The notes: a model not told the origin generated them from the letters alone. A stretch of DNA of 64,000 nucleotides from an uncultured Acidimicrobiaceae bacterium (GCA_964569015.1 CAZMSN010000003.1:9257-73256), one strand, 5' to 3'; counted from the stretch's first letter, positions 9,853 to 48,888 are shown. Numbers and translations: made by a program.

Positions 9853-9923
9853 GAGCGGCCGCGTCTGCCCCCTCGGGCCTGCCAGTACACTGGAACGGAG
9901 TACACCCCATCAGGAGTAGCACC

Positions 9924-10817: not shown

Positions 10818-10820
10818 CCG

Positions 10821-17974: not shown

Positions 17975-18322
17975 ATGGAGGAATCCGTGCAATACCTCGT
18001 AGCCCAGGCCGGCTTCATGCTGGCCCAAGAGGCGGAGACCGATAATCCGACCGGCTCTCTTGTCAGCATGCTGTTGGTGTTCGCCCTCATCGGTGGCTTC
18101 TTCTACTTCGTGATGATTCGCCCCCAACGGCGCCGCATGCGCGAGATGGATAAGCTCCGGGACTCGATCGTGGTCGGCGACGAGATCCGCACCGTTGGCG
18201 GCATCTACGCGGTCGTGAAGAGCGTCGACGACGATGACATGGTGGTCGACATCGGCGGGGGCACGTCGATGCGCATCTCTCGTCGTGCCATCGCCCGGCG
18301 GCTCGGAGGCGACACCGAGTGA
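17975..18322 (+). CDS. yajC: Preprotein translocase subunit YajC
   Basis: A single TM helix (LLVFALIGGFFYFVMIRPQRRR) followed by the YajC core. The ATG 17975 start is uncertain; the ORF is open from 17900. Confidence 0.8.
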   Translation: MEESVQYLVAQAGFMLAQEAETDNPTGSLVSMLLVFALIGGFFYFVMIRPQRRRMREMDKLRDSIVVGDEIRTVGGIYAVVKSVDDDDMVVDIGGGTSMRISRRAIARRLGGDTE

Positions 18323-23277: not shown

Positions 23278-23362
23278 CCGGAGGCGGCCCGCCGTGGGGC
23301 ATTGCCGAGGTGCCCGGGTGCTCAAGGAAAGGGCAGGGGATTCCGATGAATCGTGTATGGGA

Positions 23363-24940: not shown

Positions 24941-25572
24941 GCGCCGAGCGGGGCGTGACCTTGATGGAGGTCACGGTTGCCGCGGCCCTCTCGGCCATCC
25001 TCGCCGCCGCCCTCATCACGCTGGTCATCAGCGTCAACGGCAACGTGGTCCGGCAGGAGCAACGAGACAACGCCCTGCGCCAGGCACGCAGCACCGTCAG
25101 TCAGCTCGTCATCGAGCTGCGGCAGGCCCTCGACATCGACGGGGACGGCGTCGTGGTGGAGAGCCTCGACTCGTCGTGGGAGACCCTCGATCTCCAGTTC
25201 TATGCCGATCGCCTCACCGGCGACGAGGGGCCCGAGCTGTATCACTACCGACTCGCCGGCTGCGTCGACGGGCTCTGCGATCTCGTGCGAGATCGCTACT
25301 CGGCCGATCCCGGCAGCAGCCCCAACTGGACGTACACGTCGGATCCGGTGACACAGGTCATGGTGAGCAACGTCGTCGCCGACAGTCCCGAGCCGCTGGT
25401 GCAGGGAGTCTCCTGGGAATCGGGGAGCGAAGTGGTCGTGGACCTCTGCGGCGCAGGGCTGGCCTGCGATTTCGTGATGGTGCGGATTCGGCTCCGGGTC
25501 GAGCCGGATCGCCTGGGTGAAGGGATCGAGCCGGTGCAGGTAGCCGAGGACGTGAGGTTGCGCAATGCGTAG
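24916..25572 (+). CDS. Type-IV-pilin-like protein (minor pilin/pseudopilin)
   Basis: N-terminus VERTRSLLSAERG|VTLMEVTVAAALSAILAAALITLVISV, with G|xTLxE plus a hydrophobic helix. The GTG start overlaps the previous gene by 25 nt. 218 aa. Confidence 0.55.
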   Translation: MERTRSLLSAERGVTLMEVTVAAALSAILAAALITLVISVNGNVVRQEQRDNALRQARSTVSQLVIELRQALDIDGDGVVVESLDSSWETLDLQFYADRLTGDEGPELYHYRLAGCVDGLCDLVRDRYSADPGSSPNWTYTSDPVTQVMVSNVVADSPEPLVQGVSWESGSEVVVDLCGAGLACDFVMVRIRLRVEPDRLGEGIEPVQVAEDVRLRNA

Positions 25573-27178
25573 GCGCAGGTGGTGGCGGTTCGATGGCGAG
25601 GCAGGCTTTGCCCTGGGCACCGTGATCATCGGGGTGCTCACCATCGTGGTGCTCACGATCTTGGTCCACCGTTTGGCGGTGCGCCAGACCAGCGAGGCCG
25701 ACTTCGGAAAGCGCGAGGACACCGTGCTCGCCGGGACGGAGGCGATGTTGGAGCGCTACGCCGCCAAGATGTCGATCGATCCGTCCTACTACATGATCTA
25801 CGTCGACGAGGCCGAGGCGCCGCGGCTGTGTACCGACGGCGACTCGTCCGGCTACGGCGCGGTGGTCCAACCCGGGAACGCCTGGATCGCAGACTGCGGC
25901 ACGTGGGACTACGAGTACACCGATGAGTACTACCACCACCCGCTGCTCGGAGGCGCCAGCGACGAGGAGTGGGACGACATCGGCGTGCTGATGCATGTGA
26001 CACCTCCAACCCAGGCGGGCGCCCTCGAGGTCACCGTGGCGGGTCGTCAGGGCACCAAGCCGAATACCCGGGCGGTGACGGTGGAGATTCGGGCGGAGGC
26101 GGCCTCCGAGTTCGCGTGGCTCCTCGAGGAAGATCTCCGGTTTGGCGGCGGGGCGACGACCTTCGGCAAGGTGTATTCGGGCGGCAATGTGGGCTACCCC
26201 GCTGGCGGGGAAGCCTACGGCAACGTCTACGCCGAGGGCACGATCGGGTTCCGGGAAGGCCCCTACTGGTACTACCCGCCCACCTGGATGGACGGGGCCG
26301 AAGGCTGGGACAGCACCGGCAATCACAACGCGGCCGGTGAGTACATCACCGATGTGTACCCGGACCCGATCGACTTCGATAGATTCTGGGACGACCTCGA
26401 TCTGTTGGAGAAAGCGGCGTGCGAGGGGGGCGGTATCTGCCTCGACCCGGCCGAGAATCCGTCAATCCCGTCCGGAGTGGAGGCCTACCTGATCGAAACG
26501 GTGCAGGTCGCCGGGGAGACGCAACTGAAGGTGTCGTACGCCACGTCCCCGCCCTCGCACTCGCCCCCAGGGCAGACCGAGGAGAAATGGTGGGTCTGGT
26601 CCCACGACGCGAGCTGGACCTACCTCGACACCTATGCGATCCCGGTGAACGGGGCGCTGTGGGCCGACGAGCACGTCGTGGTCGGCCTCAACGATTCGAG
26701 TCCATTCGAGCTCTCCGGCAGGCTCACCATCTACGCCGGTGACTCCTCGGCCCGGTGCAACATCATCATCGGCAGCGACGTCCTTTACGCCGATGGTCTC
26801 GACGGTTCGGACGTGCTCGGACTGATCGCCTCCGACGAGATCTGGATCAACCCCCACGCCGTCGGGTGGTGGGATCGGGAGCTCAACATCTACGGCGCTC
26901 TGCTTTCCCAAAACGGGACCATCGCGACCGCGCTGCACAACGGCGACGCGGGACAGAGCATGACGCCGGCCCATTCGGTGCTCAACACGTACGGCTCCTT
27001 CGCCGCGGTGAGGACGGGGGACATGTCATCGTCCTTCGAAACCCGGAACTACAACTTCGACACCCGTCTCGAGCGGCTGTGCCCGCCGTTCTTCCCCCTC
27101 GTCAGCGAAGAGTGGACCTTCTCGAACTGGCGGGAGACGTCCATCCCGTGCTGGGCGACCGAGGAGGGCTGTCCGTAG
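25565..27178 (+). CDS. PilX-N-domain-like large pilin-like protein
   Basis: N-terminus MRRRRWWRFDGEAG|FALGTVIIGVLTIVVLTILV resembles the PilX N-terminal domain (G-[FA]-AL...L..L). The 500-aa C-terminal region is rich in W/Y/G/D. The start overlaps the previous gene. Confidence 0.55.
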   Translation: MRRRRWWRFDGEAGFALGTVIIGVLTIVVLTILVHRLAVRQTSEADFGKREDTVLAGTEAMLERYAAKMSIDPSYYMIYVDEAEAPRLCTDGDSSGYGAVVQPGNAWIADCGTWDYEYTDEYYHHPLLGGASDEEWDDIGVLMHVTPPTQAGALEVTVAGRQGTKPNTRAVTVEIRAEAASEFAWLLEEDLRFGGGATTFGKVYSGGNVGYPAGGEAYGNVYAEGTIGFREGPYWYYPPTWMDGAEGWDSTGNHNAAGEYITDVYPDPIDFDRFWDDLDLLEKAACEGGGICLDPAENPSIPSGVEAYLIETVQVAGETQLKVSYATSPPSHSPPGQTEEKWWVWSHDASWTYLDTYAIPVNGALWADEHVVVGLNDSSPFELSGRLTIYAGDSSARCNIIIGSDVLYADGLDGSDVLGLIASDEIWINPHAVGWWDRELNIYGALLSQNGTIATALHNGDAGQSMTPAHSVLNTYGSFAAVRTGDMSSSFETRNYNFDTRLERLCPPFFPLVSEEWTFSNWRETSIPCWATEEGCP

Positions 27179-35753: not shown

Positions 35754-36874
35754 ACGAGCCCGCTGGAAACGGCGTCACCCCCCGGCCCAGGCTTCCGTGG
35801 TGGGTGTGGCGAATCATCCAGGTGGCGGCCGTCCTCATCGTGATCGTCGTCGTTTTCGCCGGGCTGAGAGCTGCGGCGGAGCGTTTCGCCGAGGCGGTGG
35901 GCACCCCGTCGGAGACGACCACGACCATTGCCGCCGGGGACGAGGTGACGGTGGAGATCCCCGCCGGGGCGTCGGCCCGGGTCATCGCCACGATTCTCGC
36001 GGACGAGGGCGTGATCGCCGACGGCGACGTTTTTGAGGATGCGGTGCGCGACCAGGGCGTGGCCGGCCGACTCAAGGCAGGAGAGTACACGCTGGTCACC
36101 GGTGGCGACATCGACGGGATCATCGAGGTTCTCGTCGCCGGTCCCGCCCCCATCGAGATCATGCGGCTCACCGTGATCGAGGGGTTGACCATCGACGAGA
36201 TGCTGTCGTCGCTCGCCAACCTGACCGATTTCACGGTAGAGGAGCTGGCGGAACCGCTGCTGGACGGCACGGTGACCTCGCCGTACCTTCCTGAATCGGC
36301 TCCCGAGGGGTCGGAGGAACTGACCCGTTGGGAAGGCCTCCTGGCGCCCGACACCTATGAGTTCCGGGCGGACGCCACTGCGGAGACAATCGTGAGCAAG
36401 CTGGCTCAGACCCTGACGGACCGGGTGAACGCGATCGATTGGACCGAACTCGAGGCGTTGGAGCTGACGCCCTATGACGGCCTGATCATCGCTTCGCTGA
36501 TCGAAGGCGAAGCCAAGCTCGACGAAGAGCGACCGATCATCGCCAGCGTGTTCACCAACCGGCTGGAACTCGGGATCGCACTCCAGAGCTGCGCCACGAT
36601 CATCTACGCACTTGGTGGGGACCGCAATGAGGTCCTCCTCGAGGACCTCGAGGTCGATTCGCCTTACAACACCTACCTCCATCCCGGCTTGCCACCGACC
36701 CCGATCGGAGGGGTTCGCAAAGCATCCCTCGAAGCCGCGGCGGCGCCGGCCGACACGGAATACCTGTACTTCGTGCTGATCGACAACGACGGCACCCACG
36801 GCTTCTCGGAGACGCTCGAGGAGCACAACGCGCTGAAGGAGGAGGCGAAGGCGAACGGAGTGCTGACACCGTGA
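35747..36874 (+). CDS. mltG: Endolytic murein transglycosylase MltG (YceG-like)
   Basis: An N-terminal TM helix followed by the YceG domain (SPYNTYLHPGLPPTPI). Confidence 0.85.
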   Translation: MVNEPAGNGVTPRPRLPWWVWRIIQVAAVLIVIVVVFAGLRAAAERFAEAVGTPSETTTTIAAGDEVTVEIPAGASARVIATILADEGVIADGDVFEDAVRDQGVAGRLKAGEYTLVTGGDIDGIIEVLVAGPAPIEIMRLTVIEGLTIDEMLSSLANLTDFTVEELAEPLLDGTVTSPYLPESAPEGSEELTRWEGLLAPDTYEFRADATAETIVSKLAQTLTDRVNAIDWTELEALELTPYDGLIIASLIEGEAKLDEERPIIASVFTNRLELGIALQSCATIIYALGGDRNEVLLEDLEVDSPYNTYLHPGLPPTPIGGVRKASLEAAAAPADTEYLYFVLIDNDGTHGFSETLEEHNALKEEAKANGVLTP

Positions 36875-37668
36875 GGCTCGCTGTATTCGGCGATCCGGTG
36901 GCTCATTCGCTCTCTCCTGCACTCCACCGTGCTGCACTGGACGCGGTCGGGATCCCCGGCAGCTACGAGGCAGTGCGCGTCGACGAAGCGGGCATGGCCG
37001 AGGCCGTCGCGAGCATCCGGCGTGGAACGCTCGATGGGGCGAACGTGACGATGCCGCACAAGGCACTGGCGCTGCACCTCGTCGACGAGGCGTCGTCTGA
37101 GGCGCGCCGGGCCGGGGCCGTCAACACTCTGGTGCGGGTCGAGGGCCGCGTTGTCGGTCACAACACCGACATTTCCGGGGTGGCGCAGGCGTGGCGGTGG
37201 GGTGGGCTGCCGGCAGCGGGGCCGGTGCTCATCCTGGGAGCGGGGGGAGCGGCCGCCGCGGCCGTGTTGGCTCTGCAGGATCACACGATCACGGTGGCGA
37301 CTCGCAGGCCGGAGGCGGGGCTGGCGCTCCTGGAGCGATTGGGTGTCGTCGGACGGGCCCGTGGCCTGGACGTGCCCGGTGGTGGGATGGTGGTCGTCAA
37401 CGCCACCCCGCTCGGCATGCAGGGCGAGGAGCTGCCATCGTGCGCCCTGGATGGGGCCGTCGGGCTGTTCGACATGGCATACGGCGCAACAACGACTCCG
37501 GCGGTGAGACGGGCGAAGGAACGAGGCATTCCGGTGGTGGCCGGGGAGCAGATGCTGCTGGGCCAGGCAATGGCGTCATTCCAGCTCTGGACCGGGCGTC
37601 GCGCACCTGAAGATGCCATGCGGCGAGCGCTCGATGCTTCACTGGCGAGTCGGGAGGCCTCGCATTGA
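36871..37668 (+). CDS. aroE: Shikimate dehydrogenase
   Basis: 265 aa: FGDPVAHSLSPALH, NVTMPHK and Rossmann GAGGAAAA. The GTG overlaps the mltG stop. Confidence 0.85.
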   Translation: MRLAVFGDPVAHSLSPALHRAALDAVGIPGSYEAVRVDEAGMAEAVASIRRGTLDGANVTMPHKALALHLVDEASSEARRAGAVNTLVRVEGRVVGHNTDISGVAQAWRWGGLPAAGPVLILGAGGAAAAAVLALQDHTITVATRRPEAGLALLERLGVVGRARGLDVPGGGMVVVNATPLGMQGEELPSCALDGAVGLFDMAYGATTTPAVRRAKERGIPVVAGEQMLLGQAMASFQLWTGRRAPEDAMRRALDASLASREASH

Positions 37669-37753
37669 ACCTCTCAAGGGCGCCGTCGAGGGGGCCGACA
37701 CGATGCAGAAGCGAGCTTGCGCGCTTTTCGCGCGAGTGATGTGAGGAGGTTCC

Positions 37754-39433
37754 TTGACCGGCGACGCCCGCCACCTGGGCACGATGCTCCTCGAAGAGGG
37801 GATGATCTCCAGCAAGGATCTCGAAGTCGCTGTCGCCAAACAGCGGACTTCCGGTCTTCCGCTGGGCAAGATCCTCATCGAGGAAGGCCTCGTGAACGAG
37901 GCCGATCTGGTGCGCACCCTGGCGCGGCAGATCGGTATCGAGTACGTGGACCTCAGCGAGATCGCCATCGACCCGGCCGCGGTGGCTCTCGTTCCGGAGT
38001 ACCTGCTCACGAGGTACCTCGTGCTCCCGATCGGTTTCGAGGACGATCGACTGGTGGTGGCGATGGCCGATCCCGCCAACGTGCTGGCCATCGACGATCT
38101 GCGGGCGGTGTCGGGCATGGGGATCTCCGCCAGGGTCGCTACTCGCACCGACCTCGAAGAGGCGATCCACCGCCAGCAGCGTCTCGACGACTCGGTCAGT
38201 GACCTCGCCGAACAGGCCGCCGAGGACAGACGCGAAGAAACGGACGTCAGCGGTCTCGAAGTGGCCGCCGAGGAAGCGCCGGTCGTCAAACTGATGAACA
38301 CCGTCATCGGACGGGCCGTCAACGAGCGCGCCTCAGATATTCACATCGAGCCAGGTGAACGCGACCTCAGGATCCGGTTCCGCATCGACGGTGTGCTGCA
38401 CGAGGTGATGTCGACGCCGCGAAGCATCGCCAATGCCGTCGTGAGTCGTATCAAGATCATGGCGGATCTCGACATCTCCGAGCGGCGGGTGCCTCAGGAC
38501 GGCAGAGTCGGCCTGCGAGTCGCGGGACGACCGGTCGACATCCGGGTCGCCACGCTGCCTTCCATCCACGGCGAGAAGGTCGTGCTCAGGATCCTCGACA
38601 AGGGCGCCAGCGTGGCGTCACTGGCGGATCTCGGCTTCCTGGACTACAACTTCAAGCGGTACGAATCGGCCTACAGCAAACCCTACGGGGCGATCCTGGT
38701 TACCGGTCCGACCGGCTCGGGCAAGACGACGACGCTCTACTCGACGCTGGCGGTGCTCAACCGCGAGGAAGTCAACATCATCACGGTGGAGGACCCGGTG
38801 GAGTATCGGCTGCCCGGGCTCACCCAGATGCAGGTCAATCGCAAGGCAGGCCTGCTGTTCTCCACGGCCCTCAAGTCGATCCTGCGCTCCGATCCCGACA
38901 TCATCCTCATCGGGGAGATCCGCGACGGGGAGACGGCGGCGATCGCAACGGAGGCGGCTCTGACCGGGCACCTCGTGCTCTCGACGCTGCACACCAACGA
39001 CGCCCCATCGGCGGTCGGGAGGCTCATTGACATGGGGGTTGAGCCGTTCCTCGTCAGCTCGTCACTCGACGCCGTCGTGGCGCAACGACTCGCCCGCACG
39101 CTGTGCGATCGCTGCAAGGTGCCGTACTCGCCGGAGCGTCGTGTGCTCGAGGACATCGGCTGGGAGTTCCACGGCTCGGACGAGATTCCTGAGCTGTACC
39201 GGGCTGAAGGCTGCCGGCATTGTGCCAACACGGGGTTCCGTGGCCGGACCAGCATCAACGAGATCATGTTGCTCAACGAAGAGATCCAGCACATGACGGT
39301 GGAACGCCATTCGGCCCGGGAGATCAAGAAGGCGGCCGTAGCCGAAGGGATGCGGACGCTCCGACAGGACGGGTTGGAGAAGGTGGCGCTCGGTGTGACC
39401 TCTCTGGAGGAGGTCCTCAGGGTCGTCGCGTGA
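37754..39433 (+). CDS. pilB: Type IV pilus assembly ATPase PilB (GspE family)
   Basis: 559 aa. An N-terminal T2SSE_N domain is followed by Walker A GPTGSGKTT, Asp/His boxes and a tetracysteine Zn motif (CDRC...CRHC). The TTG start follows GAGGAGG. Confidence 0.85.
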   Translation: MTGDARHLGTMLLEEGMISSKDLEVAVAKQRTSGLPLGKILIEEGLVNEADLVRTLARQIGIEYVDLSEIAIDPAAVALVPEYLLTRYLVLPIGFEDDRLVVAMADPANVLAIDDLRAVSGMGISARVATRTDLEEAIHRQQRLDDSVSDLAEQAAEDRREETDVSGLEVAAEEAPVVKLMNTVIGRAVNERASDIHIEPGERDLRIRFRIDGVLHEVMSTPRSIANAVVSRIKIMADLDISERRVPQDGRVGLRVAGRPVDIRVATLPSIHGEKVVLRILDKGASVASLADLGFLDYNFKRYESAYSKPYGAILVTGPTGSGKTTTLYSTLAVLNREEVNIITVEDPVEYRLPGLTQMQVNRKAGLLFSTALKSILRSDPDIILIGEIRDGETAAIATEAALTGHLVLSTLHTNDAPSAVGRLIDMGVEPFLVSSSLDAVVAQRLARTLCDRCKVPYSPERRVLEDIGWEFHGSDEIPELYRAEGCRHCANTGFRGRTSINEIMLLNEEIQHMTVERHSAREIKKAAVAEGMRTLRQDGLEKVALGVTSLEEVLRVVA

Positions 39434-39445
39434 CCTGCCGATAGT

Positions 39446-41095
39446 GTGCCGATGGTCACCAGCAACGTCGATCGGAAGCTGGGTGAGGTGCTCGTCAAAC
39501 GTCGCCTCCTGAGCCGGGATGACCTCGAATCCCATTTGGCTACCGTGAGTCGCACCGGCGAAGCGCTTCCCAATGTCTTGCTCGCCGCAGGGGGTGTGGA
39601 GCAGGTTGATCTCCTGCGAGTGGTATCGGAGCAGGTCGGTGTCGGTTTCGTCGATCTGGGGGCTCCCGACGCGCCCGTACCCGAGGCGGACGCACTGCAC
39701 ACCGTCCCCCAAACGCTGGCCGAGGAGCTCGGGGTGCTGCCGCTTCGATTGGAGACGGACGGGACACTCGTCGTCGCCATCGACAATCCCCTCGACGACG
39801 ATCGCCGCCGTGTTCTCGGGCAGGCGATCGACGGTGAGATCCAGATGATGCTGGCGCCGCGACCCTCTCTCCGTCGGGCCATCCTGCACGCCTACGACTC
39901 TCTGGACGGTCTCTCGCGGGCTCCCGGGGTTCCCGTCACCGGCTCTTCCGGCCCCGGCGATGTGCGAGGCGGGGAGCAGACTCGGGGCGGATCCGAAGAG
40001 GGAGACGATGGTGACGATGACGAGAGGATCTCGGTCACTGATCTCCTCCTCAGGCTGTTGAAGCGGAAGGGCTCCGATCTGCATCTGTCGGTGGGCGCCC
40101 CACCGATGCTGCGTATCGACGGATCCCTGGTGCCGCTCGACGACGTGGGAACGCTCGGGCCGTACCAGCTTCGCAAGATGATCTACGCCATTCTGACCGG
40201 CCGCCAGCGCGAGGAGCTGGAAGAGAACCTCGAGCTCGACCTGTCCTTTCCCATGAAGGACGTTGGCCGGTTCCGCGTCAACGTGTTCTTCCAACGAGAC
40301 TCGATCGGAGCCGTGTTGCGGGCGATTCCCAACCAGATCGTGCCGCTGTCCGATCTCGGGATCCCGCCCATCGTCGAAGGATTCGCCCAGCTCCAGCACG
40401 GCCTCGTTCTCGTGACCGGCCCGGCTGGTTGCGGCAAGTCGACCACGCTGGCGTCGATCGTTGACCTGATCAACACCTCCCGTGCTTGTCACGTCATCAC
40501 TCTCGAGGACCCGATCGAGTTCACACACCACCACAAGCGCTCGGTGGTCAATCAGCGAGAGATCGGCAGCGATACCCGGTCGTTCTCGATTGCGTTACGT
40601 CATGCGCTCCGGCAGGATCCCGACGTCATTCAGGTCGGCGAGATGCGAGACTTGGAGACGATCTCGACCGCGATCACCGCCGCCGAGACCGGCCACTTCA
40701 TCCTGGCGACTCTCCACACGCAGGATGCCCCCCAGTCGGTGGAGCGCATGATCGACGTGTTCCCATCCCAACAGCAGCGCCAGGTCCGGGTCCAACTCGC
40801 CAACTCGCTGCAGGCGGTGGTATCCCAGCAGCTGTTGCCGCGCGCCGACGGCACCGGACGGGCGGCGGCGGTGGAAGTGATGGTGGCGACCCCGGCGATT
40901 CGCAACCTGATCCGGGAGGGGAAGGTCCATCAGATCACGACTGCGATGCAATCGGGCGGCAAGTTTGGGATGGAGACGATGGACGACTCTCTGGCCCGGC
41001 TCGTCAGGACGGGTAAGGTCGCCTACGAGGTCGCCTACGAGCATGCCCACGATCCCGAGGGCTTCGAGAGCCTGACAAAGAGGCGGGCACGATGA
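39446..41095 (+). CDS. pilT: Twitching-motility retraction ATPase PilT with an N-terminal T2SSE_N-like extension
   Basis: The PilT core has Walker A GPAGCGKST and the PilT signature AIRNLIREGKVHQI. It is preceded by a ~150-aa domain resembling the PilB/GspE N-terminal domain and an acidic Gly-rich linker. 549 aa against ~345 for typical PilT. Confidence 0.85.
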   Translation: MPMVTSNVDRKLGEVLVKRRLLSRDDLESHLATVSRTGEALPNVLLAAGGVEQVDLLRVVSEQVGVGFVDLGAPDAPVPEADALHTVPQTLAEELGVLPLRLETDGTLVVAIDNPLDDDRRRVLGQAIDGEIQMMLAPRPSLRRAILHAYDSLDGLSRAPGVPVTGSSGPGDVRGGEQTRGGSEEGDDGDDDERISVTDLLLRLLKRKGSDLHLSVGAPPMLRIDGSLVPLDDVGTLGPYQLRKMIYAILTGRQREELEENLELDLSFPMKDVGRFRVNVFFQRDSIGAVLRAIPNQIVPLSDLGIPPIVEGFAQLQHGLVLVTGPAGCGKSTTLASIVDLINTSRACHVITLEDPIEFTHHHKRSVVNQREIGSDTRSFSIALRHALRQDPDVIQVGEMRDLETISTAITAAETGHFILATLHTQDAPQSVERMIDVFPSQQQRQVRVQLANSLQAVVSQQLLPRADGTGRAAAVEVMVATPAIRNLIREGKVHQITTAMQSGGKFGMETMDDSLARLVRTGKVAYEVAYEHAHDPEGFESLTKRRAR

Positions 41096-42336
41096 GCGCC
41101 ACCGAGGTCAGTTCCACCTACCGCTATCGCGTCCGGGACAAGACGGGGATGATCGTCTCGGGCGAGATCGACGCCAGCTCTCCGGCGAGGGTGGCCGAGA
41201 TGCTCCGTGAACAAGGACTGACACCGATCCACGTCGAGGCGAAATCGACCAGCTTGCTGCAACGCGAGATCAAGATCCCCGTCCTCGGCAATCGACTGAA
41301 GCCCCGTGACGTCGTCATCTTCAGCAGGCAGTTCGCCACCATGATCAACTCGGGGCTGTCGCTCATCAGAGCCCTCGGGGTGCTCGTCGAGCAGACCTCG
41401 AGCCCGGCGCTCGCGGAGATCCTCAGAGAGGTGCGCTCCGATGTCCGCGAGGGCGCCAGCCTGTCGTTTGCGATGGAGAAGCATCCCAAGGCGTTCAACG
41501 AGCTCTACGTGGCGATGGTCCGCGCCGGCGAAGTGGGTGGGGTGCTCGACGAGACGCTCAATCGCCTGGCCGGGATGCTCGAGGCCAACCTCAACCTCCG
41601 TTCCAAGGTTCGATCGGCGATGGCCTATCCAACCGTGATCGCCATCCTCATCACCGGAGTGACGGCGGCGATGATCATGTTCGTGGTGCCGATCTTCGCC
41701 AACATGTACACCGAGATCGATGAGGAAGCGGTGCTCCCGCTGCCGACGCGGATGCTCGTCTCCGTCTCTTCGACGGTGACACGCTGGTGGTTCGTGATCG
41801 TGGGCCTGATCGTGGCCGCGGTGTGGGGGCTGCGGCGCTGGCGCAGCACCGAGGCCGGGAGGCTCGCCCTCGACCGCCTCAAGCTGCGGATTCCGGTCTT
41901 CGGGCGCCTGGCGCACAAGACGGCGATGAGCCGCTTCTCGCGCACGATGGCGGTCCTGAGCGGAACCGGCGTGCCGATCCTGCAAGCGATCGACATCGTC
42001 GGCGACACAGCCGGCAACCAGGTGGTGACGAACGCCCTGGTGGACGTGAAGGAAGCGGTGCGCGCGGGCGAGTCGCTGGCGGAACCGCTGAGCCGCCACA
42101 AGGTGTTCCCCCCGATGGTGGTGCAGATGATGACGGTGGGGGAGGAGACGGGAGCGCTCGACGACATGCTCGCCAAGGTGTCCGACTTCTACGACCGCGA
42201 GGTCGACGACACCGTCAACGCCCTCACCAGCCTCATCGAGCCCTTGTTGATCGTGGTCATGGGGGGCGCCGTGGGAGGGATCCTCATCTCGCTCTACCTG
42301 CCGATTTTCAACCTCGCCCAGCTCGTCAACGGCTGA
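41092..42336 (+). CDS. pilC: Type IV pilus inner-membrane platform protein PilC (GspF family)
   Basis: 414 aa with two T2SSF repeats. ATGA overlap with pilT. Confidence 0.85.
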   Translation: MSATEVSSTYRYRVRDKTGMIVSGEIDASSPARVAEMLREQGLTPIHVEAKSTSLLQREIKIPVLGNRLKPRDVVIFSRQFATMINSGLSLIRALGVLVEQTSSPALAEILREVRSDVREGASLSFAMEKHPKAFNELYVAMVRAGEVGGVLDETLNRLAGMLEANLNLRSKVRSAMAYPTVIAILITGVTAAMIMFVVPIFANMYTEIDEEAVLPLPTRMLVSVSSTVTRWWFVIVGLIVAAVWGLRRWRSTEAGRLALDRLKLRIPVFGRLAHKTAMSRFSRTMAVLSGTGVPILQAIDIVGDTAGNQVVTNALVDVKEAVRAGESLAEPLSRHKVFPPMVVQMMTVGEETGALDDMLAKVSDFYDREVDDTVNALTSLIEPLLIVVMGGAVGGILISLYLPIFNLAQLVNG

Positions 42337-42401
42337 ACAGGCCCGTCGCGGTCAAATGGGCTCAACCGCGGAGGCATCCGGAGCCGATAACGGTTGGTGA
42401 G

Positions 42402-42418
42402 GGGTCGATGTGCGACCC
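42402..42418 (+). promoter_or_regulatory. Conserved 5'-UTR stem-loop upstream of pilin copy 1 (a second copy lies at 43090-43106 upstream of pilin copy 2)
   Basis: The motif is GGGTCG-N5-CGACCC. Both stem arms are conserved between the two paralogous leaders, while the loop differs (ATGTG vs AGATC). It sits about 22 nt upstream of each pilin ATG. Confidence 0.35.
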
Positions 42419-42440
42419 GGCGAGAGAAAGGTCCTTTCCT

Positions 42441-42992
42441 ATGCGATGGATGCGGGAGCGTCTCAGCAAGGAAGAGGGATTCACGCTCATCGAGTTCATG
42501 GTGGTGGTGCTGATCATGGCAGTGCTGGTGGCCATCGCCATTCCGTCCTTCCTCGGATTCCGTCATCAGGCCCAAGATCGCGCCGCGCAGAGCGATCTGC
42601 GGAACGCGTTGCTGGCCGAGAAGGCCGTCTACACCAATGACAGCTCGTTCACGGGCGTCGAGGCCGACCTGAAGGCGTGGGAACCCACGGTGGTGACCGC
42701 GGCGGCCTTGAGCACGGACGCGGTGTACGTGCAGTTCGCGGCGGCGACGTCTGATCAGGTGTGCCTCTCCCAGAAGAGCGACTCCGGGTCGACGTTCATG
42801 ATCTACGAGAACGGCACCGGCGGCACGTTCTATGCCGCCGCCGGCTCGGGCACCACGATCACGTGCCCGAGCGCCGCCGCCCCGACCCTGCCACCCAAGC
42901 AGGTCAGGGTCGCCTGGAGCGCCACCGGCTTCCCCGACGCTCCGGCGGGGAAGAAGGTCACCCCGACACCTGTCACGATCTCGCCGCTCTGA
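42441..42992 (+). CDS. pilA: Type IV major pilin (copy 1)
   Basis: Leader MRWMRERLSKEEG|FTLIEFMVVVLIMAVLVAIAIPSF is a canonical class III signal with Glu+5. Two Cys (disulfide D-region). 183 aa. The ribosome-binding site AGAGAAAGG lies upstream. Confidence 0.85.
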   Translation: MRWMRERLSKEEGFTLIEFMVVVLIMAVLVAIAIPSFLGFRHQAQDRAAQSDLRNALLAEKAVYTNDSSFTGVEADLKAWEPTVVTAAALSTDAVYVQFAAATSDQVCLSQKSDSGSTFMIYENGTGGTFYAAAGSGTTITCPSAAAPTLPPKQVRVAWSATGFPDAPAGKKVTPTPVTISPL

Positions 42993-43128
42993 GGGACGGG
43001 CCGGCGCCACGACGCCACTTGCCGTATGCGACGGTCAACGGAAAGTGGCTCAATCGGTGTGCGGTACCCGCCGATAACCATTGGGAAGAGGGTCGAGATC
43101 CGACCCCTTGAGAGAAAGGTCCATTCCT

Positions 43129-43614
43129 ATGCGATGGATGCGAGAGCGTCTCAGCAAGGAAGAGGGATTCACGCTCATCGAGCTCATGGTGGTGGTGCTG
43201 ATTATGGCAGTGCTAGTGGCCATCGCCATTCCCTCCTTCCTCGGATTCCGTCATCAAGCCCAAGATCGCGCCGCGCAGAGCGATCTGCGTAACGCGTTGC
43301 TGGCCGAGAAGGCGGTCTTCACGGCAACCAACGCGTTCACGGACGTCGAAGCCGAGCTGAAGGCGTGGGAGCCCACGGTGGTAACCGGCGCCGCCTTGAG
43401 CACGGACACGGTGTACGTGGAGTATGCCGCGGCCACGTCTGATCAGGTGTGCCTCTCCCAGGCGAGCGACTCCGGGTCGACGTTCATGGTCTACGAGAAC
43501 GGCACCGAAGGCACCTTCTACGGATCGGGCGACGCCATCACGTGCCCGAGCGCCGCCGCCCCGGCGATCCCGCCGGTGCAGGCGAGCGTCGACTGGAGCG
43601 AAACAGGCTGGTAG
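43129..43614 (+). CDS. pilA: Type IV major pilin (copy 2, tandem paralogue)
   Basis: About 90% nucleotide identity to copy 1 across the 5'-UTR and most of the CDS. Same leader MRWMRERLSKEEG|FTLIELMVV. 161 aa. Confidence 0.85.
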   Translation: MRWMRERLSKEEGFTLIELMVVVLIMAVLVAIAIPSFLGFRHQAQDRAAQSDLRNALLAEKAVFTATNAFTDVEAELKAWEPTVVTGAALSTDTVYVEYAAATSDQVCLSQASDSGSTFMVYENGTEGTFYGSGDAITCPSAAAPAIPPVQASVDWSETGW

Positions 43615-43643
43615 GAGGTTTTGTAAGAGCTTCGTGCTCACGA

Positions 43644-43676
43644 ACGAGGGGACGGACACGGAGTCCGTCCCCTCGT
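43644..43676 (+). terminator. Intrinsic-terminator-like hairpin downstream of pilin copy 2
   Basis: Perfect 14-bp GC-rich stem ACGAGGGGACGGAC / GTCCGTCCCCTCGT with a 5-nt loop, 30 nt after the pilin stop. There is no clear U-tract, which is common in high-GC genomes. Confidence 0.45.
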
Positions 43677-43741
43677 ACGCGTTCGCCACAATGCCGCGAC
43701 CCGCTCGGGTGCTTCTCTAGCCTGCGGCATCGGGAGGCACC

Positions 43742-44515
43742 ATGACCGTATCACTCGTCATTCTGGGGGCCCTGCTCGGGCTCGCCGCCGGCTCGTTCGT
43801 CAACGTGGTGGCGTACCGTGTCCCGCAGCGGGCTTCTCTTCTCCGTCCGCCGTCACACTGCCCTCAGTGCGAGCATGCGATTCTGCGCCGTGACCTGGTC
43901 CCGGTGCTGTCATGGGCGTTGCTGCGGGGGAGATGCCGCAATTGTGGGGGGCGCATCTCTATCCGGTACCCGCTGGTGGAGCTGGGCACGGCTCTGCTGT
44001 TCATAGCCACCGTGCTCGTGCTGGGAGCGGTGTGGGTGATACCGGCGTACTGGGTGTTCGTCACGGTGACCCTGGCGCTGGCCCTCATCGACATCGACCA
44101 CAAGCTGATCCCCAATCGGGTGCTCTTCCCCGGATCGGGGGTCGCCGCAGCCGCCCTGCTCGCGGGGGCGATCGCCGAAGGCACACCGGGATGGTGGCTG
44201 CGGGGAGTCGCCGGCGCGGCCGGGTACTTCGTCGGGTTGCTGCTGCTGGCGCTGATCGCGCCCCGGGGCGGCCTGGGCATGGGCGACGTCAAGCTGGCGC
44301 TGCTGCTCGGGCTGTTCCTGGGCTACCAGGCGTGGGAGCACGTTCTCCTCGGGGCGTTCATCGCGATCCTGCTCGGTGGGTTGGTCTCGGCGGTTCTCCT
44401 CCTCATGCGGAGGAAGGGGAGACAGGACACGATTCCCTTCGGTCCCTACCTCGTGGCCGGCGCCTACGTGACGATCGCATTCGGGGAGCAGATCCTCGAC
44501 TGGTACTTGGGCTAG
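43742..44515 (+). CDS. pilD: Prepilin peptidase (A24 family) PilD
   Basis: N-terminal Zn-binding CxxC...CxxC (CPQCEH...CRNCGG), polytopic membrane domain, and catalytic Asp residues (IDIDHKLIP, GMGDVKL). 257 aa. Confidence 0.9.
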   Translation: MTVSLVILGALLGLAAGSFVNVVAYRVPQRASLLRPPSHCPQCEHAILRRDLVPVLSWALLRGRCRNCGGRISIRYPLVELGTALLFIATVLVLGAVWVIPAYWVFVTVTLALALIDIDHKLIPNRVLFPGSGVAAAALLAGAIAEGTPGWWLRGVAGAAGYFVGLLLLALIAPRGGLGMGDVKLALLLGLFLGYQAWEHVLLGAFIAILLGGLVSAVLLLMRRKGRQDTIPFGPYLVAGAYVTIAFGEQILDWYLG

Positions 44516-44674
44516 GCATTCCCTCGATGTCGCCGCTGCGTAGGCCTGGTGACGACGGCAGCAGGTAGCCTGTCGTTGGCTCCTTCATGCAAAGGCGCTA
44601 CGATCAAAACGTGGATGGAATGACAGCGCTGTAATTTCATCCTTCGAGGGGCTCCACAGTCGAGCGGAGAATGC

Positions 44675-45739
44675 ATGGCCGTAACGGTTGGCCTTGATAT
44701 CGGCGGTAGTGCCGTGCGGGCCGCGGTTCTCGATTCCGGCAAGAATCGCTGGGTACTGCGCCGGTTTGCCGAGATGCCGCTGCCACCCGGGGCCGTCACC
44801 GCCGGCGAGGTGATCGACGAAGGGGCGGTGTCGGAAGCCATCGCCGCTCTGTGGCGGCGCTCCAAGCTCCCCAAGCGGCGGATCGTGGTCGGCCTCGCCA
44901 GCCAGCGGCTCGTCGTTCGCCAGGTCGACGTGCCGAACCTCGGCGCCGAGGAGTTGGCGGAGGCGCTGCCCTATCAGGTGCAGGATTCGATTCCGCTCGC
45001 CGTCGAGGACGCGGTGCTCGACTACGTCCCCCTCGAGGAGTTCATGACGGCCGACGGCGACCCCATGCAGTCGATTCTCGTGATCGCGGTGTACCGGGAG
45101 ATCGTCGACTCGATGATGCGCGTGCTCGCAGGAGCCAATCTCACGCCGACGGCGATCGATCTCCAGCCCTTCGGCCTGGTGCGGGCGATCTTCGGCATCG
45201 AGGCGAGCGTGGGAAGCCCGCTCCAAGCGCTGGTCGACATCGGGGCTTCGGTGACCCAGGTTGCAATCACTCGCGCCGGGACGGCGCGGTTCGTGCGCCT
45301 CTTGCCGCGCGGCGGAGAAGATTTCACGTCGGTGCTCGTCAACGGCCTGGAAATGGACGTTGACGACGCCGCCGACCTCAAGGCTCGACTCGGGGTACGC
45401 GCCGAAGGCACTCCGGCTGAGAGCGACCCGGATGCAGCGGCGCAGCGCCTGCTCACCCTGGAGGCCGACGAGTTGATCGATGACATCCGCGACTCGATCG
45501 ACTTCTTCCTCTCCCAATCCGCCGGCACCACTCTCGAGCGGCTGGTGGTGGCGGGCAACGGCGCCCGGCTCCCGCACCTCGCGAATCGTATGGCTCGGCT
45601 CATGGGCGTACAGGTCGAGCCGGCGAGGATTCTCGACATCGTCGAGGTGGGCCGGGTGGAGCTCGACGAGGATGAGATGCTCGAAGCCCAGCCGGTGCTA
45701 CCAACGGCCCTCGGACTGGCGCTGTGGGGGGAGGTCTGA
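44675..45739 (+). CDS. pilM: Type IV pilus assembly protein PilM (actin-like ATPase fold)
   Basis: 354 aa with the PilM/FtsA-like N-terminus VGLDIGGSAVRAAVL. Confidence 0.8.
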   Translation: MAVTVGLDIGGSAVRAAVLDSGKNRWVLRRFAEMPLPPGAVTAGEVIDEGAVSEAIAALWRRSKLPKRRIVVGLASQRLVVRQVDVPNLGAEELAEALPYQVQDSIPLAVEDAVLDYVPLEEFMTADGDPMQSILVIAVYREIVDSMMRVLAGANLTPTAIDLQPFGLVRAIFGIEASVGSPLQALVDIGASVTQVAITRAGTARFVRLLPRGGEDFTSVLVNGLEMDVDDAADLKARLGVRAEGTPAESDPDAAAQRLLTLEADELIDDIRDSIDFFLSQSAGTTLERLVVAGNGARLPHLANRMARLMGVQVEPARILDIVEVGRVELDEDEMLEAQPVLPTALGLALWGEV

Positions 45740-46356
45740 TGCGGCCCATCAACCTTCTCCCGCCCGAGGCCTTCGAGCGCAGCGCCGGCCGGCGGCGGTT
45801 CGTCCGGCTCGCCCTCATCGGCCTGCTTTACCTCGTACTGCTCGGACTCGTCTTCATCATCGCCCGGCGCGACACCGCCGACATTCGCCACGACGTCGAC
45901 GCCCAGCTCGCCGTCAACTCCAACCTGGAGGCGCAGCGGGCCGAGATGCAGGGCGCCGACGAGCTGGTGGATCGTTACGACCAGAACAGTGCGCTCCTGT
46001 CGGCGCTGCTGGTCTCCGACGTGTCGTGGGGACGGATACTCAATGACCTGGGGCGGATGATCCCCGATCGGATATGGCTCGCCAGTTTCCAGGGAAGGGT
46101 CGACAACGACCCGACCACGCCGGCGCACGGGACCATTCAGGTGAGCGGCACCGGATTCGACTTCGGAGACGTGGCTGCGTGGTTGCGGGCGCTGGACTCC
46201 GACCGCTTCCCCTCGGTGGCGGGCACCTGGGTATCGACCGTGGCAGGCGAGGAGATCAGCGACATCCCGGTGGTCGTCTTCGAGTCGCAGACCTCGCTGA
46301 CGGAGTCAGCGCTCACCGATCGTCTCGCCGAGCGCATTCCGGAGGTGGGGAGATGA
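45739..46356 (+). CDS. pilN: Type IV pilus assembly protein PilN
   Basis: The N-terminal conserved INLLP motif (MRPINLLPPE) is followed by one TM helix and a periplasmic/extracellular coiled-coil. TGATG overlap with pilM. Confidence 0.7.
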   Translation: MRPINLLPPEAFERSAGRRRFVRLALIGLLYLVLLGLVFIIARRDTADIRHDVDAQLAVNSNLEAQRAEMQGADELVDRYDQNSALLSALLVSDVSWGRILNDLGRMIPDRIWLASFQGRVDNDPTTPAHGTIQVSGTGFDFGDVAAWLRALDSDRFPSVAGTWVSTVAGEEISDIPVVVFESQTSLTESALTDRLAERIPEVGR

Positions 46357-47075
46357 AGCGCTCCACCATCTGGCTGCTCGTCGGAGGGCTCTTGGTGGGA
46401 ACCGTGGTGTGGTGGATGTTCCTGATGTCGCCGGAACGGTCCTCGGCCGCCGACGCCCGTGAAGAGCTGGAGATGGCCCAGCTTCGAGAGGCGACGATCC
46501 GCACCCAGATCGCTCAGCTCTCCGACATCATCGACACGGAGATCTCCTACCGGTTCGCCATCGGCGAGATGGAGACCGCGGTCCCGGTTCAGCCACAGGC
46601 AGACGTCTTCATCGAGGACCTCACCTTCCTCGCCGAGAGCACCGGGGTCGACATCTTCTCGTTCGCCCTCTCCCGGCCGACGCCGATCGAGTTCACGGCC
46701 GCAGGCCAGGTCGGGCTCGAGGCCTACGCGGTGACGGTGACCGTCTCCGCGCAAGGCCAGTACTTCGAGGTGCTCGGCTTCCTGTACGGCCTGGAGGCGA
46801 TGGACCGGCTGGTACGGGTCGATTCGATCGGCCTCAGTCCCGGGCAAGAGGCCGAGGAGCCGGAGCAGCCGCCCGAGGAGCCGGAGGAGGACGGCACCAC
46901 GACCACCACGACGACGATCGCCGAACCGCGCCTTCGTCCCGAGCCCGACGTGCTCGCGGTCCAGATAGCTATGAGGATCTTCACGCGCAGCGCGGCGGAC
47001 GTTCCCGACACTAGTTCGGTGCCTGCCGACGGTGGATCGGCCGAGATCGAGAGCGGCGAGGAGTCGACCCAATGA
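46353..47075 (+). CDS. pilO: Type IV pilus assembly protein PilO-like
   Basis: A single N-terminal TM helix, a coiled-coil, a ferredoxin-like core, and a C-terminal acidic/Pro plus poly-Thr tail. ATGA overlap with pilN. Assignment rests on position and topology. Confidence 0.6.
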   Translation: MKRSTIWLLVGGLLVGTVVWWMFLMSPERSSAADAREELEMAQLREATIRTQIAQLSDIIDTEISYRFAIGEMETAVPVQPQADVFIEDLTFLAESTGVDIFSFALSRPTPIEFTAAGQVGLEAYAVTVTVSAQGQYFEVLGFLYGLEAMDRLVRVDSIGLSPGQEAEEPEQPPEEPEEDGTTTTTTTIAEPRLRPEPDVLAVQIAMRIFTRSAADVPDTSSVPADGGSAEIESGEESTQ

Positions 47076-47611
47076 GATGGCCACGATTGCGCGGCTTGGC
47101 GGCGGGGTTCATCGCCCTGGGACTGGTCGTCGCCGGAACGGTGGCCGCCTGGATCGTCATCACCTCAGGGGTCCTGGCCGCCCAGCCCGGGCGGCCGGAC
47201 GACGGCCCTGAGCGACCTCGCGCCGCCACTGAGGCGCTCGAGGCGACAGAATCCGCACCGCTTTCGGCGTCTTTCCAGATCTCCCAGCCGCGTGACCCCT
47301 TCCGCCCCCTGATCACCGAGGGATCCACCACGGGCGACATTCCCGGCATCGGGGGGGTTCCCGGTGGCGAGGAGCCCGCCGACGGCGACGGCTTCGCGCC
47401 GACGGCGACAACGATCACTCTCAAGGCGATACGCGAAGTCAGCGGCGTGCTGCGCGCCACTGTCGTGGTCGGCACGGTGAGCTACGACGTCGGCGTTGGG
47501 GATACGTTCGCCGTGTCCTACAAGGTCATCAGCTTGACCACGACGAAGGGCGTCTTCACCTTCGGCGACAGTGCATTCGAGCTCAGCATCGGCCAGCAGA
47601 TCCTCAAATAG
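47072..47611 (+). CDS. PilP-like pilus assembly protein
   Basis: TM helix, an RDPFRPL motif (PilP-type R[ND]PF), a Gly/Pro-rich linker, and a C-terminal beta-rich domain. ATGA overlap with pilO. Confidence 0.45.
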   Translation: MRWPRLRGLAAGFIALGLVVAGTVAAWIVITSGVLAAQPGRPDDGPERPRAATEALEATESAPLSASFQISQPRDPFRPLITEGSTTGDIPGIGGVPGGEEPADGDGFAPTATTITLKAIREVSGVLRATVVVGTVSYDVGVGDTFAVSYKVISLTTTKGVFTFGDSAFELSIGQQILK

Positions 47612-47651
47612 CGCCGGATATTTCAGAACTCCGCTGGATGCGGAGCCCCTT

Positions 47652-47684
47652 GGGGTGGAGGGCCGGGCAACCGGCCTTCCCCCT
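47652..47684 (+). terminator. GC-rich hairpin between the pilP-like gene and aroC
   Basis: GGGG-t-GGAGGGCCGG-gcaa-CCGGCCTTCC-CCCC, a ~10-14-bp stem. It could be a terminator or attenuator at the end of the pilus operon. Confidence 0.3.
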
Positions 47685-47736: not shown

Positions 47737-48888
47737 ATGTTGCGATTTCTCACCGCAGGCGAATCACACGGGCCGGGCCTGGTGGCCGTCGTCGAAGGCT
47801 TGCCCGCCGGGCTGGACGTGTCGCGAGACGGCATCGGCGCCGAGTTGGCGCGGCGCCGGCTCGGCTACGGTCGCGGCCGGCGCATGCTGGTGGAACGGGA
47901 CGAGGTGGAGATCCTTGGCGGGGTGCGTTTCGGCCGGACGCTGGGAAGCCCCGTCGCGGTGGTCATTCGAAACACCGAATGGGCAAAGTGGGCTGAGGAG
48001 ATGTCGCCGGCGCCGGGACGATCCCACCGTGAGCTGAGCACCCCCCGTCCTGGCCACGCCGACCTCTGCGGGATGCTGAAGTACGACAGCCACGACGCCA
48101 GGGACATCCTCGAACGCGCCTCGGCTCGGGAGACCGCGGCCCTCACCGTGGTCGGCTATCTGGCCAAGCAACTCCTGGCCATCCTCGACATGTCGGTGCT
48201 CAGCCACGTGGTACGCATCGGATCGGTCGTGGCGAAGTCCGAGCGTCTCCCCAGGCCAGACGATCTCGCCGCGATCGACGCGTCGTCGGTACGGGTCTTG
48301 GATTCGACGTACGCCGACGCGATGGTGGCCGAGATCGAGGCTGCAAAAGAGGACCGTGACACGCTCGGCGGGGTCGTCGAGGTACTGGCCTACGGGGTGC
48401 CTGTCGGCCTGGGGAGCCACGCGCACCACGATCGGCGTCTGGACGCTCGGCTCGCCGAGGCGCTCATGTCGATCCAAGGGATCAAGGGCGTCGAGATCGG
48501 CGACGGCTTCGCAGTGGCGGAGAAGCGGGGCTCGATTGCCCACGATGAGATCTACTACGAAGCGGGAGAGTTCGTTCGCCACACCGGACGGGCCGGCGGG
48601 ACCGAGGGCGGGATCAGTATGGGAGGTCTCCTCCGGGTGCGAGCCGCCATGAAGCCCATCTCAACGGTCATGCGCCCGCTCGACACCGTCGATGTCAACA
48701 CCAAGGAAGCCGACAAGGCGTTCCGGGAACGGAGTGACGTGTGCGCGGTGCCGGCCGCGGGTGTGGCGGCTGAGCAGATGGTCGCGATCGTGCTCGCCCA
48801 AGAGGCGCAGCGGAAATTCGGCGGCGACACCATGAGCGACATGCGGGGAGCACTCGAAGCATACCGCAGCCGCATCGCCTCCTTCTGA
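47737..48888 (+). CDS. aroC: Chorismate synthase
   Basis: 383 aa, MLRFLTAGESHGPGLVAVVEGLPAGL, canonical. Confidence 0.95.
   Translation: MLRFLTAGESHGPGLVAVVEGLPAGLDVSRDGIGAELARRRLGYGRGRRMLVERDEVEILGGVRFGRTLGSPVAVVIRNTEWAKWAEEMSPAPGRSHRELSTPRPGHADLCGMLKYDSHDARDILERASARETAALTVVGYLAKQLLAILDMSVLSHVVRIGSVVAKSERLPRPDDLAAIDASSVRVLDSTYADAMVAEIEAAKEDRDTLGGVVEVLAYGVPVGLGSHAHHDRRLDARLAEALMSIQGIKGVEIGDGFAVAEKRGSIAHDEIYYEAGEFVRHTGRAGGTEGGISMGGLLRVRAAMKPISTVMRPLDTVDVNTKEADKAFRERSDVCAVPAAGVAAEQMVAIVLAQEAQRKFGGDTMSDMRGALEAYRSRIASF

Follow-up and report, generated by a model that had tools for sequence, protein, structure and literature searches.

A probably ancestral type IVa pilus cluster between aroE and aroC in a single-membrane member of the Acidimicrobiia, with candidate WhiG/FliA-type promoters

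The 64-kb window analyzed here (the whole stretch of DNA under study, from an uncultured Acidimicrobiaceae bacterium) carries ten type IV pilus (pil) genes that lie among genes of the shikimate pathway. From 32.5 to 52 kb, the plus strand reads alaS, ruvX, mltG (YceG), aroE, the ten pil genes, aroC, aroK, aroB, the gene of an M24 peptidase (pepP), efp, and nusB. We put forward, as a highly probable explanation, that the block is the vertically inherited type IVa pilus (T4aP) cluster of a single-membrane bacterium of the class Acidimicrobiia (Actinomycetota), and that it occupies its ancestral position in the alaS-ruvX-mltG-aroE ... aroC-aroK-aroB-efp backbone. The ten genes are co-directional and fill positions 37754-47611 of the plus strand between aroE and aroC, with the coordinates and identities that an initial annotation of this DNA had given them. 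With their two flanking genes and their predicted products, they are:

36871..37668, plus strand: aroE (shikimate dehydrogenase), the upstream flank (Pfam Shikimate_dh_N 7.6e-27, SDH_C 5e-12)
37754..39433, plus strand: pilB, extension ATPase with an N-terminal MshEN domain of the cyclic di-GMP (c-di-GMP) type (T2SSE 2.9e-140, MshEN 1.4e-21)
39446..41095, plus strand: pilT, retraction ATPase of 549 amino acids (aa) with an extra N-terminal MshEN-like domain at residues ~7-142 (TIGR01420, 6ojx)
41092..42336, plus strand: pilC, platform protein (T2SSF 5.6e-67 in two stretches; PilC and GspF matches in NCBIfam)
42441..42992, plus strand: pilA1, prepilin with the leader MRWMRERLSKEEG/FTLIE (N_methyl 9e-7; TIGR02532)
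43129..43614, plus strand: pilA2, prepilin, tandem duplicate of pilA1, leader MRWMRERLSKEEG/FTLIE (N_methyl, TIGR02532)
43742..44515, plus strand: pilD, prepilin peptidase / N-methyltransferase (A24_N_bact 6e-33, Peptidase_A24 5e-15)
44675..45739, plus strand: pilM (PilM_2 3.4e-38; TIGR01175 181 bits vs 133)
45739..46356, plus strand: pilN, 205 aa (PilN 6.8e-7, 29.7 bits vs 22.8)
46353..47075, plus strand: pilO, with an acidic, Pro- and Thr-rich insert (PilO 3.4e-5, 24.4 bits vs 22)
47072..47611, plus strand: PilP-like gene (open reading frame 10, ORF10), 179 aa, with a transmembrane (TM) anchor, a disordered linker containing an invariant SQPRDPFRPL, and a C-terminal HR-type beta domain
47737..48888, plus strand: aroC (chorismate synthase), the downstream flank, followed by aroK, aroB, pepP, and efp (Chorismate_synt 1.4e-109)

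The genes are less tightly packed than first described. Only four of the nine internal junctions overlap (pilT/pilC, pilM/pilN, pilN/pilO, and pilO/ORF10), not most of them, and the others are separated by gaps of 12-159 nucleotides (nt). The identities of pilB, pilT, pilC, the two pilin genes, pilD, pilM, pilN, and pilO all stood up in searches with profile hidden Markov models, in which Pfam was run on the ten genes and the other main ORFs of the window. Against the Protein Data Bank (PDB), the pilB product gives PilB/PilF matches with E-values of 1e-153 to 1e-171 (Geobacter PilB, 5zfr, 9e-158); its score for TIGR02538 is slightly below the equivalog cut-off (625 bits vs 675), and the tetracysteine motif CxxC...CxxC can be read in its sequence. 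Residues 197-542 of PilT form a complete PilT (6ojx, 1e-116; TIGR01420, 468 bits against a cut-off of 319) in which the AIRNLIRE motif is readable. PilM, PilN, and PilO all exceed their Pfam gathering scores (131.9/27, 29.7/22.8, and 24.4/22, respectively), with the 205-aa gene call for pilN being taken from identical metagenome contigs. The two pilins are 83% identical to each other and both have a class III signal peptide (G/FxxxE), for which the block holds a dedicated A24 prepilin peptidase. Homologues of the window proteins are found in metagenome-assembled genomes (MAGs) of Acidimicrobiia, and the proposal of a type IVa PilB/PilT/PilC/PilD/PilMNO set in an actinobacterial backbone is confirmed and can be narrowed to this class. 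As a separate observation, poly-threonine runs occur in acidic, proline-rich linkers of PilO (TTTTTTT; gene at 46353-47075) and of SecD (14 T; gene at 18319-19911), and these may be a habit of the lineage for extracytoplasmic linkers that are possibly glycosylated.

The gene content bears on what the machine might be used for. Many bacteria take up DNA by means of T4aP machines with PilT, and the two pilins weakly match the ComGC and GspG models by way of their N-terminal helix, both of which could point to a machine that works mainly in DNA uptake (as a competence pilus) or in secretion (as a pseudopilus) and not in adhesion or twitching. That assignment would partly overlap with the explanation given above. 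However, the architecture is of the PilB/PilT/PilMNO/PilP-like kind rather than ComG-type or GspL/M-type, and the window has no comEA or comEC genes, so that we regard a machine mainly for DNA uptake or secretion as unlikely.

The case for an ancestral T4aP cluster is carried by gene order in relatives. A PilM alignment (10 sequences, 50%-identity representative library) led to 80 loci in GTDB species genomes, onto which all window proteins were mapped by tblastn. Among Acidimicrobiia-like loci with enough sequence, aroC lies no more than 5 kb after pilM in 23 of 26, while aroE (13 of 15) and mltG (15 of 15) are found just upstream of pilB. The layout mltG-aroE-pil...-aroC-aroK-aroB-efp is thus that of most sampled Acidimicrobiia species, and the gene order of the window is identical to that of a 3.7-Mb contig whose ORF10 shares only 52% identity. 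The Actinomycetes-like loci (MAGs of Frankiales, Acidothermaceae, Mycobacteriales, and Nanopelagicales) have aroC-aroK-aroB after pilMNO in 30 of 31, aroC being slightly further away in locus L082. One Actinomycetes MAG reads mgsA-alaS-ruvX-mltG-aroE, then a Roadblock/PatA_N/small-GTPase module, then pilB-pilT-pilC and the remaining pil genes. This module, seen at 7005-9983 of L087 and 31-907 of L077 and not in the window, resembles an MglA/MglB or conservon system and could control the polarity or activity of the pilus. In composition, the pil genes of the window (GC 0.659, GC at third codon positions, GC3, 0.850) are like 31 genes of the backbone (0.672 and 0.844).

Since the arrangement recurs in both Acidimicrobiia and Actinomycetes, the aroE-pil-aroC linkage appears to be ancestral and probably predates the split of the two classes. 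This pilus type is nearly always found at this site, which fits vertical inheritance from their common ancestor and is the opposite of what a recent insertion would give. The initial annotation had proposed that the pilus genes were inserted into a biosynthetic operon, which is contradicted both by the backbone-like GC and GC3 and by the same layout in most sampled relatives; it had also allowed that an arrangement universal among relatives would not be an insertion, and this is essentially what the synteny survey found. A targeted literature search for the linkage, judged on titles alone, gave no relevant title. In pilus-less actinobacteria such as M. tuberculosis, a prepilin-peptidase-like gene, Rv2551c, may lie between aroE and aroC, but we do not use this as evidence.

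Pfam finds no Secretin domain in the ten pil genes or in the other main ORFs of the 64-kb window, and the reported lack of a PilQ secretin is correct to that extent. Loss of the secretin is the published expectation for T4aP of monoderms (PMC6916266), and its absence from the locus is as expected for a single-membrane cell. The core T4aP gene set is present, although "complete machinery", as it had been called, is too strong, because the block is without minor pilins. The best candidates for these lie ~15 kb upstream of the pil block:

23360..27178, plus strand: three pilin-like genes between relA and the gene of an MBL hydrolase, candidate minor pilins or tip proteins (N-termini, weak N_methyl)

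The first (23360-24940, plus strand) has the N-terminus G/FTVVE and a CarboxypepD_reg domain, the second (~24913-25572, plus strand) has G/VTLME with a weak N_methyl match, and the third (25565-27178, plus strand) has GEAG/FALGTV and no Pfam match. By BLASTP, the trio has weak but collinear matches to three genes that an Actinomycetes cluster (L087, 15497-19592) carries between its major pilin and pilD. The window trio is a candidate for the priming or tip complex and is probably a minor-pilin or tip module of the same pilus; if so, the pilus machine is split over two loci here.

The tenth gene of the block had been called pilP-like, and this holds for fold and architecture and not for the sequence family. 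Its product has 262 homologues, nearly all of them unnamed proteins from MAGs of Acidimicrobiia or Actinomycetota. In an alignment of 40 of these, a hydrophobic helix at the N-terminus is followed by a variable linker, the invariant FQxSQPRDPFRPL, and a conserved C-terminal domain that ends in GQQILK. AlphaFold predicts a TM helix (residues 3-32), then a disordered stretch, and then a beta domain of seven strands (114-178, pLDDT >90), and the top 11 Foldseek matches of this model in the PDB are all GspC-HR, PilP, or GspB. The predicted architecture, a membrane anchor with a disordered linker and an HR beta-sandwich fold, is hence that of PilP/GspC-HR proteins. Moreover, in the cultured Acidothermaceae strain B102 a homologous protein at the ORF10 position adjoins aroC (hhalign probability 95.9%, RDPF motif included). 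What speaks against this assignment is that the protein itself has no match in Pfam or NCBIfam, PF04351 and the PilP models included; in the 40 homologues, T2SSB (PF16537) is matched by 16 and PilP by none. From its sequence, ORF10 is anchored by a TM helix, in contrast to PilP, which is anchored by a lipobox. The HR domains of PilP and GspC bind the N0 domain of the secretin. The diderm PilP/GspC-HR proteins with solved structures (GspC-GspD, 3oss; PilP with PilQ, 4av2) accordingly have a secretin as partner, whereas the present window holds none.

Both motor ATPases have an N-terminal domain of the MshEN type. Residues 8-59 of PilB match NF053729, the curated model of the MshE-related c-di-GMP motif (tandem, 24 residues), with 62.9 bits, above the cut-off of 38, and since it passes this model PilB is likely to be a c-di-GMP receptor. 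PilT reaches 32.0 bits, below the same cut-off. Its residues 7-142 nonetheless match MshE-N (5htl, 1.7e-7) and the c-di-GMP domains of Thermus PilF, and the PilT and PilU chains returned from the PDB (356-402 aa) align only to query residues ~192-544, none to the N-terminal domain. This domain of PilT is found in every Acidimicrobiia locus and is absent from the Actinomycetes loci except L068. In an alignment to the MshE motif, key positions of PilT appear to be substituted, with replacement of the Arg before LG by Lys or Gln, of Gly10 by Arg, and of the Gly in the second-repeat LG by Pro or Ala. In the cases listed, MshE, PilB, and Thermus PilF, the MshEN domain is on extension ATPases, whereas here a second, degenerate copy is located on the retraction ATPase PilT.

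Upstream of pilB and of each pilin gene, the cluster contains a motif with the consensus CTCAA-N16/17-GCCGA(T/C)A:

37673..37701, plus strand: WhiG/FliA-type promoter-like motif before pilB (CTCAAGGGCGCCGTCGAGGGGGCCGACAC), which fits T[AC]AA-N16-GCCGA and CTCA-N17-GCCGA
42361..42390, plus strand: WhiG/FliA-type promoter-like motif before pilA1 (CTCAA-N17-GCCGATAA), with one of the two GCCGATAA octamers of the window
43049..43077, plus strand: WhiG/FliA-type promoter-like motif before pilA2 (CTCAA-N16-GCCGATAA), with the other GCCGATAA octamer

The motif before pilB, CTCAA-N16-GCCGACAC, starts 5 nt past the aroE stop codon, ~52 nt before pilB. The octamer GCCGATAA occurs only twice in 64 kb, both times on the plus strand and ~58 nt upstream of the two pilin start codons, and the expected number of matches to the strict pattern CTCAA-N14-17-GCCGATA is 0.005 per window. 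Across 509 kb from 35 Acidimicrobiia loci, T[AC]AA-N15-17-GCCGA has 49 matches on the coding strand, and 31 of them are directly upstream of a pilB (12) or pilin gene (19). Specifically, an equivalent motif stands 23-64 nt before pilB in 12 of the 20 Acidimicrobiia loci that hold pilB, and in most Acidimicrobiia loci the same motif precedes the Gly-1 codon of the first pilin gene by ~95-108 nt, while the intergenic sequence around the conserved motifs is otherwise diverged among these relatives. Similar motifs are present at other junctions of the Actinomycetes pil clusters. The actinobacterial WhiG consensus is T(A/C)AA-N16-GCCGATAA (WhiG2) or CTCA-N16-17-GCCGAACT (WhiG1) (PMC12871210), and the type IV pilus (T4P) cluster of Rubrobacter has three WhiG promoters inside it that were verified by transcription start site (TSS) mapping (PMC8325347). 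RsiG was reported in 3 of 4 Acidimicrobiales species and is always accompanied by WhiG (PMC8325347).

Could the CTCAA-N16-GCCGATAA elements instead be binding sites of another regulator, or a conserved leader RNA? The evidence for them consists of sequence motifs only, the -35 element is TCAA and not the classical TAAA, and the window has no sigma factor gene. On the other hand, spacing, orientation, and both half-sites fit the WhiG consensus T(A/C)AA-N16-GCCGATAA (PMC12871210), the distance to the start codons is promoter-like, and such sites are TSS-verified in the Rubrobacter T4P clusters (PMC8325347). We therefore give little credence to another regulator or a leader RNA and treat the elements as predicted WhiG/FliA promoters.

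Two further sets of motifs were observed. A fourth one, CTCA-N17-GCCGATAG, is located at the 3' end of pilB (39416-39444, plus strand), so that its end is 2 nt from the pilT GTG (39446) and 7 nt from an in-frame ATG (39452). It could drive a leaderless pilT transcript, but it may also be due to chance because the pattern is expected ~2.8 times per window. L023, L027, and L086 have similar sites in front of pilT. In L086 (Acidothermaceae B102), TCAAG-N16-GCCGATGC motifs at 7034 and 8521 are found ahead of two Wzy_C (O-antigen polymerase-like) genes that lie just upstream of pilB, which suggests that a surface polysaccharide may be co-regulated with the pilus in that strain.

The limits of transcription units in the cluster were considered in terms of the following hairpins:

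37715..37737, plus strand: 9-bp hairpin within the predicted leader of pilB, immediately ahead of the GAGGAGG ribosome-binding site (fold scan)
43644..43676, plus strand: perfect, GC-rich 14-bp hairpin after pilA2, probable terminator or attenuator (z -4.3 to -5.7)
47629..47645 and 47657..47680, plus strand: two hairpins in the ORF10-aroC spacer (z -2.3; no U-tract after)

The strongest hairpin of the cluster is inside the block, after pilA2 and not after pilA1. All 27 Acidimicrobiia loci tested have an equivalent of it after their first or only pilin gene (z -3.2 to -8.6). Our reading is that pilA1 and pilA2 arose by a lineage-specific tandem duplication of a pilin gene together with its predicted promoter, with the putative terminator kept after the second copy. 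At the borders, the insulating hairpins that had been proposed are weakly supported: there are the two stems before aroC, but the aroE-pilB spacer folds no better than shuffled sequences (z -0.34) and the stem at 37715-37737 lies downstream of the predicted pilB promoter. A scan for intrinsic terminators from 35 to 52 kb gave 3 terminator-like sites, whereas shuffled sequences have more; none of the 3 is at a border of the block, and no canonical U-tract terminator was found at the hairpins of the cluster. A sigma-70 promoter scan of the same 35-52 kb found 0. At gathering scores no Rfam family matches the window, and within 37.5-47.8 kb none does even at E<=1, hence no riboswitch is present.

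These data also address whether the pil and shikimate genes might be co-transcribed as one long operon, with the pilus and aromatic amino acid synthesis functionally coupled. All of the genes are co-directional with short spacers, neither canonical U-tract terminators nor sigma-70 promoters were detected, and the linkage is of very long standing. Nevertheless, conserved sigma-28-type motifs stand immediately behind the aroE stop codon as well as ahead of the pilin genes, the pilin gene has a strong conserved hairpin after it and aroC has hairpins before it, the Rubrobacter pil clusters are transcribed from WhiG promoters (PMC8325347), and two Acidimicrobiia loci (L023 and L025) retain the pil cluster without aroCKB. 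We consider a single coupled operon to be quite improbable. The block had been described as embedded in a core biosynthetic operon, and this is not simply so, given the conserved WhiG/FliA-type motifs that precede pilB and both pilin genes.

Almost no weight can be given to a horizontally acquired island recently inserted into the aroE-aroC-aroK-aroB operon, because, even though the block interrupts the genes of one pathway, has hairpins near both ends, and has a slightly lower GC in places (0.636-0.658 at 40-44 kb), dozens of species from two classes share the arrangement, the GC and GC3 of the block cannot be told from those of the backbone, its borders showed no integrase, tRNA, or repeats, and Pfam assigns only housekeeping functions to all neighboring genes. 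The rest of the window likewise consists of housekeeping genes, namely thrS, the gene of an MMPL protein, citrate synthase, pdxST, ruvB, queA, tgt, secDF, relA, aspS, mgsA, hisS, pyrBC, carB, pyrD, and coaBC.

Several points do weigh against a vertically inherited T4aP cluster transcribed from WhiG/FliA promoters. In L023 (9296-10256) and L025, the pil cluster with its PilP-like gene is followed immediately by efp, and aroC-aroK-aroB are missing there. In L037 (CP070681.1, a 1.7-Mb Acidimicrobiia chromosome), pilD-pilM-pilN at 9120-11226 are in another context, where neither pilB/T/C nor aro or efp genes are detectable within 10 kb of them, and in L086 (Acidothermaceae B102) polysaccharide genes are found upstream of pilB. 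The loci were selected by PilM and so show the linkage where this pilus type exists, not how many relatives lack the pilus. As for transcription, the promoter and terminator assignments are drawn from motif conservation only, the spacer of the pilA1 motif (42361) is one nt longer than the published spacing, and the two pilin promoter motifs of the window are paralogous copies and therefore not independent evidence. Lastly, the view of whiG, rsiG, a secretin, and further pilus genes is that of the 64-kb window.

In the mechanism that we propose for the ancestral T4aP cluster, the pil genes would be transcribed apart from the aro genes, from WhiG/FliA (sigma-28 family) promoters before pilB and each pilin gene. 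The pilin units would end at the strong hairpin, which we propose gives a high output of pilin relative to the parts of the machine. In the machine itself, sequence and fold identify PilB as the extension and PilT as the retraction ATPase, PilC as the platform, PilD as the prepilin peptidase, PilM, PilN, and PilO as the assembly sub-complex, and PilA1 and PilA2 as major pilins. The PilP-like protein most likely stabilizes PilN/PilO via its conserved RDPF linker, and for its HR domain we expect a binding partner that is not a secretin. The anti-sigma factor RsiG, which depends on c-di-GMP, often holds WhiG in Actinomycetota, and this together with the MshEN motif of PilB means that both production and extension of the pilus are probably under c-di-GMP control. 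A bolder version, which we offer tentatively and hold to be rather doubtful, is that in Acidimicrobiia both motors are direct c-di-GMP sensors, PilT having acquired an MshEN receptor domain that is found in no solved PilT, so that c-di-GMP would set the balance of extension and retraction at the protein level in addition to the transcriptional control by WhiG/RsiG, and that the PilP/HR protein has a secretin-independent role, e.g., guiding the fiber through the wall. If true, such a role would run counter to the notion that monoderm machines have no use for PilP.

The closest comparison is with the T4aP of monoderms such as Clostridium perfringens, C. difficile, and Streptococcus sanguinis (PMC6916266), which have the same PilB, PilT, PilC, PilD, PilM, PilN, PilO, and long-leader pilins in one locus and no secretin. 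The present cluster differs from them in its PilP/GspC-HR-fold gene, PilP being "logically absent" from monoderms (PMC6916266), in the MshEN domain of PilT, and in the absence of minor pilins from the cluster. The T4P cluster of Rubrobacter radiotolerans and R. xylanophilus, which is under (RsiG)2-(c-di-GMP)2-WhiG (PMC8325347), is likewise actinobacterial. Like the window cluster, it is divided into transcription units by several flagellar-type promoters within it (-35 TAAA/TCAA, -10 GCCGATAA). Rubrobacter, however, belongs to a different class, and its promoters are TSS-mapped, whereas those of the window are predicted only. The zoospore T4aP of Actinoplanes missouriensis is also actinobacterial and, as quoted in PMC8325347, is transcribed by sigma factors of the WhiG/FliA family; the same source quotes Kimura et al. 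(2019) for the experimental demonstration of these pili and their adherence to hydrophobic surfaces. A. missouriensis differs in being a filamentous sporangium former with flagellated spores. T4aP in monoderms, Actinobacteria included, are known from genomics (PMC6916266), and T4aP genes have been noted before in MAGs of Acidimicrobiia. Type IVa pili and their control by WhiG are already published for Actinomycetota, and the locus is a variation on a well-understood system.

The essence of these findings is that what appeared to be a pilus island within shikimate genes becomes an evolutionary marker, and that the link between WhiG-type promoters and type IV pili, seen in Rubrobacter, Actinoplanes, and some families of Actinomycetes, is extended to the class Acidimicrobiia. 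The single-membrane pilus also shows two testable peculiarities, a PilP/HR-domain protein that occurs without a secretin and a PilT with an MshEN domain. They do not overturn current understanding, but both may be useful for the study of T4P assembly and its control by c-di-GMP.

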